From Escherichia phage 6925, in sequence record ON637250.1: a stretch of 39,100 nucleotides of DNA, one strand, 5' to 3'. The first letter of the stretch is position 1. Each line of letters starts with the position of its first letter. The position numbers were made by a program, and so were the translations under genes. The notes beneath the pieces are model-generated. The model saw nothing but the letters and a program-made list of their open reading frames with translations, was not told where the DNA came from and did not search any database. Below are positions 6,130-39,015 of the stretch, piece after piece.

Positions 6130-6152
6130 CCTAAACTATCACTATAGGATTA
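6130..6152 (+). promoter_or_regulatory. Phage RNAP promoter (phi1.1-like)
   Basis: CCTAAACTATCACTATA|GGATTA; +1 at 6147. Confidence 0.7.
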
Positions 6153-6195
6153 GACTCAAGGTCATGACTCAAAGTCGTGGCCTTCATGATTAACC
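6148..6195 (+). promoter_or_regulatory. RNase III-like processing site (R1.1-like)
   Basis: TAGACTCAAGGTCATGACTCAAAGTCGTGGCCTTCATGATTAA has the CTCAAGG ... GTGGCC-TTTATGAT pattern of T7 R sites; the same pattern recurs at 13213 and 36093. Confidence 0.55.
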
Positions 6196-6225
6196 CTAAA
6201 TAAACACTACTGGAGATTTAACCGT

Positions 6226-13047: not shown

Positions 13048-13212
13048 TTGCTAAGAAAACTTAAAGCTCGCTACCATCGGTTCATGTACAAATGGTGGAG
13101 TGATGAAGCAACCTGCCTGTCCAACATTCTTGGAGACCAGCGGTTCAACTCTGAGGCATGGAAGAAAGCTAACCGGAAGTTCATGTATCACTTCTTGCGT
13201 ACAGACTTCTAG
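13048..13212 (+). CDS. Hypothetical small basic protein (about 54 aa), putative TTG start
   Basis: AAGGAGGA sits 5 nt before the TTG at 13048; the track ORF 13015..13212 begins inside gene 4. Confidence 0.4.
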
Positions 13213-13258
13213 GTCTAGACTCAAGGTCATTCACATAGAGTGGCCTTTATGATTAGAC
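13213..13258 (+). promoter_or_regulatory. RNase III-like processing site before the DNA polymerase gene
   Basis: TAGACTCAAGGTCATTCACATAGAGTGGCCTTTATGATTAGA, same family as 6148 and 36093. Confidence 0.55.
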
Positions 13259-13275
13259 TAAACGGAGGATTAACC

Positions 13276-17249: not shown

Positions 17250-17301
17250 GTCTAACCGATAGTCATATCCTATCAATCCAACAGTCATCCATAGGTGAAA
17301 C

Positions 17302-17324
17302 ACTAAACTATCACTATAGGGACT
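17302..17324 (+). promoter_or_regulatory. Phage RNAP promoter (phi6.5-like)
   Basis: ACTAAACTATCACTATA|GGGACT; +1 at 17319. Confidence 0.75.
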
Positions 17325-17385
17325 TTATGACCTAAGATATGACTATAAGATATACTTTAGTCTTAACTTAAAGAGGAGATTCAAG

Positions 17386-22349: not shown

Positions 22350-22612
22350 CGACCTTTAAGGCCCTCTCTACCGAGGGTCCTACCTTAGAGACGTATAGTT
22401 CTACGGTGGGAACCAGCTTGAAGGTTGACTTCCCGGAGCTTTCAGATGTGACCGACTGGTCGCTGCTTGATGTTACTACGCCTGATGGTGTTAGCTACTC
22501 CCGTAGAACCAACAGTCTCTACTTCAAGGCCACCTCTGGCGTGGAAGGTCTAGTGATTGTTGAGTATGACGGTTCGCCTGTGCGTTCCTTCAACGTATCT
22601 TTCACAAACTAA
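22322..22612 (+). CDS. 10B: Putative 10B-specific C-terminal extension reached by programmed -1 frameshift at the GGTTTTC slippery site (22322-22328)
   Basis: Heptamer G_GTT_TTC sits 7 codons before the 10A stop. The -1 frame is open for about 95 codons from the slip site to a TAA at 22610-22612, immediately before Tphi. Confidence 0.55.
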   Translation, partial: GFHSGVSGLTTFKALSTEGPTLETYSSTVGTSLKVDFPELSDVTDWSLLDVTTPDGVSYSRRTNSLYFKATSGVEGLVIVEYDGSPVRSFNVSFTN

Positions 22613-22615
22613 TTG

Positions 22616-22655
22616 AAACCCCTTGGGTGCCTTCGGGTGCTTGAGGGGTTTTTTG
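22616..22655 (+). terminator. Tphi-like intrinsic terminator for phage RNAP
   Basis: AACCCCTTGGGTGCCTTCGGGTGCTTGAGGGGTTTTTTG: a GC-rich hairpin plus T6 run, closely resembling T7 Tphi, directly after the capsid gene. Confidence 0.85.
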
Positions 22656-22669
22656 CTTAAGGAGGGAAT

Positions 22670-22759
22670 ATGGTCCTTATTTACACAGGGTTAGCACTAT
22701 TCGTTTTATTCTGGGCGTACCTTCTGTCCAGCTCACCGTCTAGTGCCTATGACCGTTAA
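22670..22759 (+). CDS. Possible mini-ORF (29 aa, one hydrophobic helix) between Tphi and gene 11
   Basis: AAGGAGGG then ATG, MVLIYTGLALFVLFWAYLLSSSPSSAYDR. The RBS and ATG sit where T7 has the gene 11 start; here an in-frame TAA separates it from the gene 11 ATG at 22772. Confidence 0.35.
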   Translation: MVLIYTGLALFVLFWAYLLSSSPSSAYDR

Positions 22760-22771
22760 GGAGTAAAACCT

Positions 22772-23338
22772 ATGGCTCAATACATTCCACTGAATGCTAA
22801 CGATGACTTAGATGCCATCAACGATATGTTAGCAGCTATCGGTGAACCAGCAGTCCTACAGCTTGACGAAGGTAACGCTGACGTCTCGAACGCTCAACGT
22901 ATCCTGCATCGTGTCAATCGTCAGGTCCAAGCTAAAGGCTGGAACTTTAACATCAACGAAGCTGCTGTCCTGACACCTGATGTCCAAGACAATAGGATTC
23001 GATTCCTGCCGTCTTACCTTCGGGTCATGACTGCTGGTGCTACCAGTTACTACAGCAACATGGGGGGCTATCTCTATGACCTGTCCACTCAGTCCACGAC
23101 CTTCACTGGACCAATTACAGTCGAACTGGTGGAGATGAAACCGTTCGCTGAGATGCCTGTAGTATTCCGTGACTACATCGTTACCAAGGCTAGCCGTGAG
23201 TTCAACGCTAAGTTCTTCGGTAGCCCAGAGTCTGAACTGTACCTTCGTGAGCAGGAAGCAGAACTCTACCAGCAGGTGATGGAGTACGAGATGGACACTG
23301 GTCGCTACAACATGATGTCCGACATCGGGAGGGACTAA
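22772..23338 (+). CDS. 11: Tail tubular protein A
   Basis: 188 aa; INDMLAAIGEP, QRILHRVNRQVQAKGWNFNI, YVTKASREFNAKFFG and MEYEMD match T7 gp11. RBS TAAGGAG. Confidence 0.93.
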   Translation: MAQYIPLNANDDLDAINDMLAAIGEPAVLQLDEGNADVSNAQRILHRVNRQVQAKGWNFNINEAAVLTPDVQDNRIRFLPSYLRVMTAGATSYYSNMGGYLYDLSTQSTTFTGPITVELVEMKPFAEMPVVFRDYIVTKASREFNAKFFGSPESELYLREQEAELYQQVMEYEMDTGRYNMMSDIGRD

Positions 23339-23565
23339 TGGCTAGTCACAACCTGAAGATTCACCGCCAGCACTTTGGTCCGGTACAACTAGGTCTAAAG
23401 ACAGCAGAGCTGAGACTTAACGACCGGGACTTTAATGTTGGCGACTGGCTTATCCTGAATGAGTGGGACAACGGGTATACTGGACAACAGGTAGCACGTA
23501 AGGTTGTCCACATTGCTGACGTTGGTGACATCGCTGAGGGATACGTCCTAATGAGTATGATTTAA
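23338..23565 (+). CDS. ASCH/PUA-like small protein (DUF3850-type signature) inserted between tail tubular A and B
   Basis: 75 aa; the H.LKI...F.PV..G.KT.E.R.NDRDF.VGDWL.L.EWD...YTG pattern fits the DUF3850/ASCH signature as I recall it. Start overlaps the gene 11 stop (TAATG). T7 has gene 12 directly after gene 11. Confidence 0.6.
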   Translation: MASHNLKIHRQHFGPVQLGLKTAELRLNDRDFNVGDWLILNEWDNGYTGQQVARKVVHIADVGDIAEGYVLMSMI

Positions 23566-23574
23566 GGAGGGCAT

Positions 23575-25932
23575 ATGCCGCTTATCACACAAAGCATAAA
23601 AAATCTTAAGGGTGGCATTAGCCAACAGCCTGATATCCTGAGGTTCTCAGACCAAGGAGAGGCGCAAGTTAACTGCTGGTCATCCGAAAGTGATGGACTC
23701 CAGAAGCGTCCACCTACAGTCTTCAAGCGACGTCTTAACATCGACGTTGGGAGCAACCCTAAGTTCCACCTGATTAACCGTGACGAGCATGAGCAGTATT
23801 ACATCGTGTTCAATGGGTCCAACATTCAGGTAGTTGACTTGAGTGGTAATCAATACTCAGTTTCCGGTGCGGTAGATTACGTTAAGTCGTCCAACCCGCG
23901 AGATGACATACGTGTCGTTACCGTTGCAGACTATACGTTCATCGTGAACCGTAAGGTTGTCGTTAAAGGTGGAAGCGAGAAGTCACACTCTGGTTATAAT
24001 CGTAAAGCTCGTGCTTTAATTAACCTGCGTGGTGGACAGTATGGTCGCACCCTTAAGGTAGGAATCAACGGAGGAGTTAAGGTTTCGCATAAGTTGCCAG
24101 CAGGTAATGATGCCGAGAATGACCCTCCTAAGGTTGATGCTCAGGCTATCGGTGCAGCTCTAAGAGACCTTCTTGTTGCTGCTTACCCTACCTTCACGTT
24201 CGACCTTGGGTCTGGCTTCCTGTTAATCACTGCCCCTTCAGGTACTGACATTAACTCAGTGGAGACGGAGGATGGATACGCTAACCAGCTAATCAGCCCA
24301 GTCCTCGACACGGTGCAAACAATCTCTAAGTTGCCTCTTGCAGCTCCAAATGGGTACATCATTAAGATTCAAGGTGAGACCAACAGTAGCGCCGATGAAT
24401 ATTACGTGATGTATGACTCCAACACTAAGACGTGGAAGGAGACAGTAGAGCCGGGAGTTGTCACTGGGTTCGATGTAACCACAATGCCACATGCTCTGGT
24501 CAGAAAGTCTGATGGCTCCTTTGAGTTCAAGACTCTGGACTGGTCTAAGCGCGGTGCGGGTAATGATGACACAAACCCTATGCCCAGCTTCGTGGATGCT
24601 ACGATTAACGATGTGTTCTTCTACAGGAACAGGCTGGGGTTCTTGTCGGGCGAGAACGTAATTATGAGCCGTTCAGCCAGCTACTTTGCGTTCTTCCCTA
24701 AGAGTGTGGCGACATTGAGTGATGATGATCCTATTGACGTAGCTGTAAGTCACCCTCGAATCTCAATCCTTAAGTATGCCGTTCCGTTTAGCGAGCAGCT
24801 ACTACTTTGGTCGGATGAGGTTCAGTTCGTGATGACAAGCTCTGGGGTACTTACCTCGAAGTCTATCCAGCTTGATGTAGGCTCAGAGTTTGCCTTAGGA
24901 GATAATGCCAGACCGTTCGCTGTAGGACGCTCAGTCTTCTTCTCAGCACCTCGTGGGTCATTCACCAGCATTAAGCGATACTTCGCTGTAGCAGATGTGT
25001 CTGACGTGAAGGATGCCGATGATACCACTGGTCACGTACTGTCCTATATCCCTAACGGGGTGTTTGACATTCAGGGGACAGGGACTGAGAACTACATCTG
25101 CGTCAACTCTACAGGTGCATACAACAGAATCTACATCTACAAGTTCTTGTTTAAGGACGGCGTACAGCTTCAAGCCTCTTGGTCGCACTGGGAGTTCCCT
25201 AAAGCTGATAAGATTCTGGCGTCTGCGTCGATTGGCTCTACCATGTTCATTGTTCGTCAGCACCAAGGCGGAGTGGACCTTGAGCACCTTAAGTTCATCA
25301 AGGAGGCCACTGACTTTCCGTTAGAACCATATAGACTCCACGTTGACTCCAAGGTGTCTATGGTAATACCAATTGGCTCATACAACGCTGACACCTATAA
25401 GACTACGGTTGACATTGGTTCTGCTTATGGTGGAAACGCTCCGTCTCCCGGTAGGTACTATCTGATTGACAGTCAGGGTGCCTACGTGGACCTTGGTGAA
25501 TTGACCGACATCTCAACTGTGGCTGTACTCAATGGTGATTGGTCAGGACGTACAGTGTTCATCGGACGGTCTTATCTGATGTCCTACAAGTTCTCACGGT
25601 TCCTGATTAAGATTGAAGACGAGAGTGGCACTCAGTCTGAAGACACTGGTCGTCTACAGCTTCGTCGTGCTTGGGTAAACTACAAGGACACTGGCGCTCT
25701 TAGACTCATTGTCAGAAACGGTGAGCGGGAGTTCGTGAACACCTTTAATGGGTACACCCTTGGTCAGCAAACCATCGGGACTACCAACATTGGGGATGGA
25801 CAGTATCGCTTCGCTATGAATGGTAACGCATTAACCACGAGTCTAACCTTAGAGTCCGACTATCCTACCCCGGTGTCCATCGTTGGGTGTGGCTGGGAGG
25901 CGTCATACGCTAAGAAAGCTCGTTCCGTCTAA
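23575..25932 (+). CDS. 12: Tail tubular protein B
   Basis: 785 aa, collinear with T7 gp12 (SIKNLKGGISQQPDILR, HLINRDEHEQYY, VTVADYTFIVNR, NDVFFYRNRLGFLSGEN, DDDPIDVAVS, GRLQLRRAWVNY, GCGWE). Confidence 0.96.
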   Translation: MPLITQSIKNLKGGISQQPDILRFSDQGEAQVNCWSSESDGLQKRPPTVFKRRLNIDVGSNPKFHLINRDEHEQYYIVFNGSNIQVVDLSGNQYSVSGAVDYVKSSNPRDDIRVVTVADYTFIVNRKVVVKGGSEKSHSGYNRKARALINLRGGQYGRTLKVGINGGVKVSHKLPAGNDAENDPPKVDAQAIGAALRDLLVAAYPTFTFDLGSGFLLITAPSGTDINSVETEDGYANQLISPVLDTVQTISKLPLAAPNGYIIKIQGETNSSADEYYVMYDSNTKTWKETVEPGVVTGFDVTTMPHALVRKSDGSFEFKTLDWSKRGAGNDDTNPMPSFVDATINDVFFYRNRLGFLSGENVIMSRSASYFAFFPKSVATLSDDDPIDVAVSHPRISILKYAVPFSEQLLLWSDEVQFVMTSSGVLTSKSIQLDVGSEFALGDNARPFAVGRSVFFSAPRGSFTSIKRYFAVADVSDVKDADDTTGHVLSYIPNGVFDIQGTGTENYICVNSTGAYNRIYIYKFLFKDGVQLQASWSHWEFPKADKILASASIGSTMFIVRQHQGGVDLEHLKFIKEATDFPLEPYRLHVDSKVSMVIPIGSYNADTYKTTVDIGSAYGGNAPSPGRYYLIDSQGAYVDLGELTDISTVAVLNGDWSGRTVFIGRSYLMSYKFSRFLIKIEDESGTQSEDTGRLQLRRAWVNYKDTGALRLIVRNGEREFVNTFNGYTLGQQTIGTTNIGDGQYRFAMNGNALTTSLTLESDYPTPVSIVGCGWEASYAKKARSV

Positions 25933-25939
25933 CTTATTG

Positions 25940-25989
25940 AAGGGCCTATAGATTTACCTTAACTATCACTATAGGGACTATAGGCCCTT
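25940..25989 (+). promoter_or_regulatory. Phage RNAP promoter (phi13-like, -17..+6 at 25957-25979) nested inside a perfect 12-bp inverted repeat
   Basis: CCTTAACTATCACTATA|GGGACT with +1 at 25974. Arms AAGGGCCTATAG (25940-25951) and CTATAGGCCCTT (25978-25989). Confidence 0.7.
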
Positions 25990-26008
25990 AAGGTTATAAG
26001 GAGACTTT

Positions 26009-26479
26009 ATGTATATTCGCAAGGCTACGGAACAGGATGTCCACTACTTTCTGTGGCATCTTTCAGCAGATGATGTTAATGAGTGCAAAGCAAACTATGG
26101 GTCAACCGTTGGTCTCTCTGAAAGACTGCTTAAGCATCTATCTCCGTCATCTGTGGTTTTAACGAATGGTGTAGGCGAAGTGTTTGCCTATGGTGGAAAC
26201 CAAGGGGATAACGTATGGTTCTTGACTTCCGGTCTTGTCCATAAGCTGAGACCTAAAGAGAAGCGGGAGTTTATAAAGCGTATCTCTGAGTACAGGGACT
26301 TAATGTTAGACCAATACGGGACCATCTGGAACTACGTGTGGTCAGGCAATAAGTCTCACATTAAATTCTTGAAGTTGCTTGGGGCTAAATTCCATGATGA
26401 TTGGACTATAAGCCCAGTAACTGGTGATCGTTTTCAACTATTCACTATCTCTAAGGAGGACGTATGTGCGAGCCAGTAA
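26009..26479 (+). CDS. Gene 13-position protein (internal virion/assembly protein A), 156 aa
   Basis: Assigned by position after the phi13-like promoter and before gp14; RBS TAAGGAGA. Confidence 0.6.
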   Translation: MYIRKATEQDVHYFLWHLSADDVNECKANYGSTVGLSERLLKHLSPSSVVLTNGVGEVFAYGGNQGDNVWFLTSGLVHKLRPKEKREFIKRISEYRDLMLDQYGTIWNYVWSGNKSHIKFLKLLGAKFHDDWTISPVTGDRFQLFTISKEDVCASQ

Positions 26480-36081: not shown

Positions 36082-36092
36082 ATCTATTAAGT

Positions 36093-36146
36093 GTTAGACT
36101 CAAGGTCATTACTGTATGTAGTGGCCTTTATGGTTAACACTAACTA
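36093..36146 (+). promoter_or_regulatory. RNase III-like processing site (R18.5-like)
   Basis: GTTAGACTCAAGGTCATTACTGTATGTAGTGGCCTTTATGGTTAAC, same family as 6148 and 13213. Confidence 0.55.
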
Positions 36147-38401: not shown

Positions 38402-38495
38402 CTGAATGAATAACTATAGGCGAAAACTGAGTTAATAAGCAGTTAGTAACCTATAGTTACTACCAGTCTAACCTACTGTTTTACAAGGAGTTTGG

Positions 38496-38518
38496 ACTTA
38501 ACTATCACTATAGGGAAG
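38496..38518 (+). promoter_or_regulatory. Phage RNAP promoter near the right end (phiOR-like)
   Basis: ACTTAACTATCACTATA|GGGAAG; +1 at 38513. Confidence 0.75.
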
Positions 38519-38697
38519 ACCCCCGGTTACTTATAGTATTACTATAGTGAATATACATATGCAGACTTTATGCAAGACCTTAGGAGGCAGACTCCGAGTT
38601 CTTACCTAAGGCTTGCACCGATGGGAGGAGGTGATATTAATCATAATACCTCCAATACAGATAGTCACAGACCATAGATACAGGAGGTATGTAGCAT

Positions 38698-38856: not shown

Positions 38857-39015
38857 CGCCGTAATGGTAACAATCAACGAAAGTAAGACCTAAGGTCAGT
38901 TCATAGCTGACGCTACTCTACTGACCTTAGCTACTGTAGTCAAGGACTTTAGGTAACACCTTAATAGAAGCTCACTTAGGGTCATCCTACTTATTGGTCT
39001 ATCCTAGTGTCGCCT

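Follow-up and report, generated by a model that had tools for sequence, protein, structure and literature searches.

The junction of genes 12 and 13 in Escherichia phage 6925 raised the question of what a phage promoter does inside a perfect inverted repeat: whether the repeat acts in the RNA, in the DNA, or has no function at all. The window, i.e. the whole analysed stretch of 39,100 nucleotides (record ON637250.1), was recognized as a Kayfunavirus genome (K1F-like, a T7 relative of the Studiervirinae). A 2-kb query around the site matched 220 phage records, most of them Kayfunavirus of Escherichia and Salmonella, with identities of 80-97%. Gene 12, encoding the 785-aa tail tubular protein B, was placed at 23575..25932 on the + strand by the list of open reading frames and the annotation of relatives, and its TAA stop codon at 25930-25932 (+). 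Gene 13, encoding the 156-aa internal virion protein A, was placed at 26009..26479 (+) by the same list and by tblastn, which gave matches in 1279 phage records, and a Shine-Dalgarno sequence AAGGAG was read at 25998..26003 (+). Genes 14 and 15 were also among the reading frames around the site. Additionally, a 75-aa reading frame was observed between genes 11 and 12 at 23338-23565 (+), the EcoDS1 counterpart of which (22748-22975) is named 'RNA-binding protein' in RefSeq.

The perfect 12-bp inverted repeat described by the initial annotation was recovered by a repeat finder: the arms AAGGGCCTATAG (25940..25951, +) and CTATAGGCCCTT (25978..25989, +) were 100% complementary and spaced by 26 nt. 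Both were located on the transcribed strand within the 76-nt gap between the end of gene 12 at 25932 and the start of gene 13 at 26009. With +1 at G25974, the left (5') arm covers -34..-23, being intergenic and outside the promoter, the right (3') arm covers +5..+16, and the 26-nt apical loop (25952..25977, +) corresponds to -22..+4, as had been claimed. It follows directly from the sequence, again in agreement with the first reading, that read-through RNA contains both arms, while RNA initiated at phi13 contains the right arm only, since its +1 lies downstream of the left one. In the MFE folds the hairpin was extended by a lower stem of 5 bp, in which UAACU (25930..25934, +), including the stop codon of gene 12, was paired with GGUUA (25992..25996, +). 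The repeat finder also detected a tandem direct repeat ACTATAGGG / ACTATAGGC at 25968..25985 (+), and the right arm resembles a duplicated promoter core; the promoter copy forms only 7 bp with the left arm.

The promoter within the loop, proposed initially as phi13-like, proved to be genuine. The phi13 promoter of the phage RNA polymerase was assigned to 25957..25979 (+), covering -17..+6, on the basis of the consensus, and the loop contains CCTTAACTATCACTATAGGGA. The sequence TWAACTATCACTATAGGRA was found at 11 sites of the + strand in the window, the promoter motif ACTATCACTATAGG(G/A)(A) being listed at 2814, 6135, 8016, 8890, 11268, 17307, 20145, 21180, 25962, 33238 and 38501, and the 11-mer promoter core occurred six times when 0.45 occurrences were expected. 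EcoDS1 has 11 annotated phage promoters, each matched by one of these 11 sites; the counterpart of the 25962 site is named 'phi13' there, and in the record of ASO2B the site is annotated as a promoter matching the K1F consensus of Scholl & Merril. A scan for sigma-70 promoters gave nothing at the site. The RNA polymerase of the relative Ro45lw transcribes ACTTAACTATCACTATAGGGA in vitro with the first G as +1, and a 21-nt minimal promoter has been defined in vitro for this enzyme (PMC12272871). The left arm, at -34..-23, falls outside the Ro45lw minimal promoter.

The repeat was the sole perfect 12-bp local inverted repeat of the window at a loop of 3-40 nt. Dinucleotide shuffling gave an expectation of about 0.12 such repeats per shuffle, at least one being present in 23 of 300 shuffles. 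A contiguous stem of at least 12 bp spanned a given point at 0.7% of random window positions and at 0 of the 10 other promoters of the window. The isolated 58-nt hairpin was calculated to fold with -21.5 kcal/mol (z = -3.8), and the hairpin in a 96-nt context with -27.8 kcal/mol (z = -2.5). The stability of the hairpin was unexceptional, ranking at about 302 of 7804 80-nt windows genome-wide; thus, thermodynamics alone would not pick it out, while its location and conservation do. Judged on the sequences compared, conservation is a stronger argument against chance than the repeat statistics.

The junction was checked in relatives, as the initial annotation had suggested, and the arms were found to be conserved. 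It was base-for-base the same in K1F (NC_007456) and EcoDS1 (NC_011042), the 83-nt junction was present in 220 of the 220 matching phage records with at least 99% identity in 108, and most relatives were more than 90% identical across it. An alignment of 20 K1F-type junctions, 19 of them distinct, was drawn from 24 IMG/VR relatives collected via gp13 and from 8 metagenome contigs; a 16-mer from the start of gene 13, used to scan metagenomes, returned mostly chance matches, 8 of 120 loci being true relatives and adding 2 new variants. Across the 19 distinct junctions, the inner 9-bp core GGCCTATAG/CTATAGGCC was invariant except for three substitutions, each in a single sequence. An A>G change in L030 turned the pair into G.U, while T>C in L143 and G>T in L217 each broke one pair at the loop end; the former of these two was the only variant of the right arm. 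The third outer pair was G-C in 7 of the 19 sequences and mismatched in the remaining 12. Hence, the perfect 12 bp claimed at the outset hold within the K1F subgroup and fail group-wide, and the junctions aligned indicate that they are a state of that subgroup and not of the whole group.

No pair had changed on both sides in the 19 distinct junctions, and the K1F-type alignment neither proves nor disproves the pairing. The predicted lower-stem pairs were retained by all 19 sequences with no compensatory change and were uninformative. The loop, on the other hand, held three promoter specificities among the K1F-type relatives (...CTTAACTATCACTATAGGGA, ...TTACACCCTCACTATAGGGA and ...TTTAACACTCACTATAGGGA) with both arms unchanged, the loop being swapped in L044, L050 and L052 while the arms stayed constant. 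The gp13 proteins of these three IMG/VR relatives were 63-85% identical, the specificity sequences ACACCCTCACTATAGGGA and TTTAACACTCACTATAGGGA were placed between the unaltered arms, and the differing promoters point to switches of RNA polymerase and promoter specificity within the group. The conservation of the right arm could instead reflect constraints on the initially transcribed sequence.

Further, the gene 12/13 junction was compared beyond the K1F group. A gp13 profile search of IMG/VR relatives gave 79 loci with 66 distinct junctions of the T7-, T3-, K11-, K1F-, Ninurta- and Berlin-like types. MFE pairs spanning phi13 were present in 65 of the 66, the exception being the Dickeya Luksen-like type. 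However, an MFE pair spanning the promoter was also found at 9 of the 11 promoters of the window, which made this measure unspecific, and the argument is carried by stem length and recurrence; a measure of contiguous stems with a random-position control was used in its place. The listed junction folds had stems of about 8-19 bp, and a stem of at least 8 bp bracketing or overlapping phi13 was found at this junction in nearly all sampled Studiervirinae lineages.

In the T7-like, T3-like and K11-like phages and a few others, the partner of the 5' arm is the promoter core together with the first bases transcribed: UUCUCCCUGUGGUGG with CCACUAUAGGGAGAA in T7, G.U pairs included, and GUCUCCCU with AGGGAGAC in T3. 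The pair formed with +7 was U-A and G-C in 8 sequences each, the left arm tracking the promoter, or its +4/+7 positions, across genera; the K1F arms were not alignable to these. The K11 promoter subtypes GGTAGCAC and GGGCACAC had the corresponding left arms GTGTTGCT and GTGTGCTC, which changed along with the -12..-8 specificity region. Several G.U pairs in the T7-, T3- and K11-like stems, along with the G.U of the K1F-type variant L030, favour the + strand RNA over DNA as the folded form. In the K1F type, the 3' arm is located downstream of the promoter and the entire promoter is held in the loop, the stem of the phage studied here being all Watson-Crick and symmetric and folding equally well as DNA or from either strand. 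Such a displaced design was also observed in the Ninurta-like junction L054 (ACCCTATG ... CATAGGGT), the arms of which are unrelated in sequence, and the Berlin-like types partly have the same layout with the whole promoter in the loop. In the relative L048, GTCCCCTATGGT pairs with ACTATAGGGGAC of the promoter, and this sequence may retain the ancestral layout. Judging by the tandem repeat ACTATAGGG/ACTATAGGC, a 9-nt duplication of the promoter core could have given rise to the 3' arm of the K1F type. It was also observed that the G-run downstream of R13/phi13 in T3-like genomes varied from 4 to about 15 G (L027, which is T3 NC_003298, 990-1010, and L058-L066), a length polymorphism of a homopolymer located shortly before gene 13.

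The hairpin was then assessed as an RNase III site. A covariance model was built from eight canonical annotated RNase III sites of T3, R13 and R3.8 of T3 being left out as seemingly non-canonical, and the window was searched with the filters off. Seven strong matches of 27-47 bits were obtained, all on the + strand, and canonical-type RNase III-like hairpins were predicted at 691-749, 1014-1066, 1744-1794, 2101-2153, 6145-6198, 13210-13260 and 36089-36142. All seven were of the ACUCAAGGUC...GUGGCCUUUAUGAUUA type, and by this model the phage clearly carries putative processing hairpins of the T7-group type. The score of the 12/13 hairpin was 7.4 bits, the same for either strand, in an alignment to the wrong helix, and the assignment of this hairpin as a canonical T7/T3 RNase III site was rejected against the 27-47 bits of the strong matches. 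Owing to the low score, the element was filed as a positional and architectural counterpart of R13 rather than as a canonical site. In a scan for intergenic upper stems of at least 9 bp closed by AAGG/CCUU, it was one of five on the + strand, three of the others being canonical sites; its palindromic stem makes it score on the - strand as well.

An Rfam scan of 25700-26200 gave only two chance-level matches, located elsewhere. No RNase III sites are annotated in the records of EcoDS1, K1F and ASO2B, although the promoter is, and literature searches turned up nothing relevant on RNase III or transcript mapping in Kayfunavirus. The predicted accessibility of the Shine-Dalgarno sequence and AUG of gene 13 was similar in read-through, phi13-initiated and cut RNAs. 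With the ribosome-binding site equally accessible in all three forms, no translational switch was seen, and translational control was dismissed as unsupported.

Several other hairpins were recorded in the window. Past the capsid gene, at 22611-22652, a hairpin with a stem of 17 bp is located where EcoDS1 and T3 have the T-phi late terminator annotated. The promoter at 17307-17325, phi6.5 by position, is situated between the perfect 11-bp arms ATAGTCATATC (17259-17269) and GATATGACTAT (17336-17346), with a 66-nt spacer; this repeat is identical in EcoDS1, had a marginal score of 10 bits (E = 9) against the RNase III model and is positionally analogous to T3 R6.5, which encloses phi6.5. Near the right end, short inverted repeats with promoter-like CTATAG cores were found at 38411-38459 and 38505-38550, namely TAACTATAGG/CCTATAGTTA (10 bp) and TCACTATAG/CTATAGTGA, the phiOR promoter core serving as the left arm of the second. 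Not far from the genome end, the arms CTAAGGTCAGT (38890-38900) and ACTGACCTTAG (38920-38930) form a perfect inverted repeat of 11 bp with a 19-nt spacer; the AAGGUC motif known from RNase III sites is present in it, but a score is obtained on either strand.

A stem-loop overlapping phi13 is already annotated in other phages. In the record of T3 (NC_003298), the stem_loop 'RNase III recognition site R13' at 25443-25480 overlaps 'promoter phi13' at 25457-25479, and in that of phiYeO3-12 (NC_001271) the R13 stem_loop at 26209-26246 overlaps the promoter phi13 at 26223-26245. Of the ten RNase III stem-loops listed in the T3 record, R6.5 and R13 have a promoter entirely within them, and a further three overlap with a promoter. 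The copies of the T7 records V01146 and NC_001604 consulted have no annotated RNase III features. For T7, two secondary papers (bioRxiv 10.1101/106799 and PMC6938266, both citing Dunn & Studier 1983) describe a 'weak' RNase III site, R13, together with a promoter between genes 12 and 13, and state that many gene 13 transcripts consequently lack gene 12.

We proposed that the element is the Kayfunavirus counterpart of R13/phi13. By analogy with these phages, it is reasonably probable that the promoter-enclosing hairpin is formed in the RNA, that the read-through RNA is cut by RNase III and that the phi13 RNA stays uncut. Late transcripts from upstream promoters (phi9, phi10 and others) reading through gene 12 would carry both arms and would fold into the 12-bp stem, extended by a weak lower stem in which the stop codon of gene 12 takes part. 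The host RNase III would then probably cut at the 3' base of the stem, near 25989-25991, where the predicted position falls in the AA bulge 25990-25991 directly 3' of CCCUU. Both the cleavage and its position in this phage were inferred from the T7 and T3 sites. After such a cut the gene 11-12 message would end in the hairpin, which would protect its 3' end, and the message from gene 13 onward would be set free, whereas RNA started at G25974, having no 5' arm, would not be a substrate. The analogy with T7 and T3 suggests that the hairpin of the read-through RNA is probably either cut or stabilised. The RNA-level reading of the initial annotation, its proposed RNase III test included, is in line with the R13 that overlaps phi13 in the T3 and phiYeO3-12 annotations and with the T7 R13 as described in the papers cited above; the novelty that it implied is not borne out, as the arrangement is a design already known in T7 and T3.

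The main alternative was a structural hairpin that is formed in the read-through RNA and is no substrate of RNase III, acting as a barrier, e.g. by blocking 3'-exonucleases and stabilising the gene 11-12 RNA once the downstream part has decayed, or as a cistron insulator. The stem is conserved yet fails the canonical RNase III model, the loop is large, and the T7 R13 is described as weak (10.1101/106799, PMC6938266). In T3 and phiYeO3-12, however, the positional orthologue of the hairpin carries an RNase III site annotation, and in T7 it is reported as cut; moreover, the predicted accessibility of the gene 13 ribosome-binding site was the same with and without the hairpin, so that no translational role was visible. 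We considered this alternative possible though rather unlikely. A neutral origin was given a smaller chance still: the repeat would be a by-product of the CTATAG palindrome in the promoter core and of the 9-nt tandem duplication beside an older R13 left arm, persisting by descent. The presence of the tandem direct repeat, the zero covariation within the K1F group and the high identity of most relatives over the junction would all be expected of it. This is opposed by the invariant arms, between and beside which the loop, with its three promoter specificities, and the flanks diverge, as well as by the stems of other lineages, such as L054, that hold the promoter in the loop with unrelated arms. 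Moreover, the left arm appears to depart from the promoter-pairing sequence at exactly two positions, both matching the downstream copy. We regarded as improbable a more elaborate scenario in which the 9-nt duplication, followed by two compensatory changes, moved the ancestral 3' arm off the promoter in the K1F lineage and uncoupled the processing of read-through RNA from promoter sequence; the free, perfectly conserved 12-nt arm at +5..+16 of each phi13-initiated mRNA would then be functional itself, e.g. by pairing in trans with the 5' arm of read-through RNA, or the palindrome would have a role at the DNA level or be a target of defence.

A role at the DNA level as such, where a cruciform or a single-strand hairpin would modulate phi13, replication or recombination or be sensed by host defence, was judged highly improbable. 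The fully Watson-Crick, symmetric stem, with the same fold as DNA and on either strand, would permit it. However, a spacer of 26 nt strongly disfavours the extrusion of a cruciform. Extrusion would also leave the promoter single-stranded and inactive, and the G.U pairs on which the orthologous stems of the T7-, T3- and K11-like phages depend are mismatched in DNA; the cruciform suggested in the initial annotation was abandoned on account of the spacer and of these mismatches. The RNase III-site palindromes of T7 can be sensed as DNA by Lamassu DdmABC (PMC11707656), and with the palindrome of this phage fully symmetric a side effect at the DNA level is conceivable; the DdmABC effect is, however, a liability for the phage and not a phage function. 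Equally little weight was given to the idea that the hairpin makes the phage or host RNA polymerase terminate or pause and so limits read-through into phi13. Such a signal would agree with a stable hairpin at a gene boundary, but no U-tract follows the stem (CCCUUAAGGUUAUAAGG), a terminator scan found none at the site, and the real terminator-like hairpin after gene 10 is different, having a 17-bp stem at 22611-22652. A terminator of the hairpin-plus-U-tract kind (intrinsic or T-phi type) was rejected for the lack of a U run 3' of the stem.

The preferred reading, a counterpart of R13/phi13 in which the read-through hairpin is probably processed, adds an unannotated example to a known design. 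The placement of a promoter in a hairpin has been known from T7 and T3 since the T7 sequence was published and is ordinary rather than new. The design of these phages is thereby extended to a large Kayfunavirus group of at least 220 public genomes, the records of which now mark the promoter but not the hairpin, and the finding has little importance beyond annotation. It indicates that the hairpin can be built in two ways, with the promoter as the 3' arm or wholly in the loop. The result may be used in annotating transcript processing sites and in engineering K1F-type therapeutic phages, where edits of the 12/13 junction would disturb both promoter and hairpin, and it is relevant to those who use the phi13 promoter fragment in vitro.

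The element was finally compared with the known sites. It is like the canonical T7-group hairpins (R0.3, R0.5, R1, R1.1, R1.3, R4.7, R18.5) in being intergenic, on the + strand and in having an upper stem closed by AAGG/CCUU, and unlike them in having neither the ACUCAAGGUC...GUGGCCUUUAUGAUUA sequence nor the long lower stem; the apical loop of 26 nt on its 12-bp stem also sets it apart from most characterised RNase III substrates. T3 R6.5, which also has a lower stem and an internal loop, folds as AAGGCTCTCT, a 24-nt loop with phi6.5, and AGAGGGAGCCTT. The element here shares with it the upper stem closed by AAGG...CCUU (12 bp versus 10 in R6.5), the complete promoter in the loop (26 nt versus 24), the internal loop and the lower stem. 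R6.5 differs in preceding gene 6.5, in its canonical flanks ACUC / UAUGAUUA and in a lower stem of 9 bp, when only 5 bp are predicted here. The R13 of T3 and phiYeO3-12 is likewise a stem-loop enclosing phi13 between genes 12 and 13. It consists, however, of GTCTCCCT/AGGGAGAC and an inner helix, 38 nt in total, with the promoter positions -1..+7 as the 3' arm, and its arms have no sequence similarity to those of the K1F type. The promoter core (about -9..+7) itself serves as the 3' arm in T7, forming 15 bp with G.U pairs included, and the R13 cleavage coordinate, reportedly 27281 (Dunn & Studier), corresponds to about +8. The R13-type 3' arm of the T7-, T3- and K11-like phages, made of the promoter core and the initial transcribed bases, is replaced here by an arm at +5..+16, while the position of R13 and the enclosure of a promoter are both retained. 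As with T7 R13, the hairpin lies at the same junction and on the same strand, it overlaps phi13, and the RNA initiated at phi13 is without the 5' arm.
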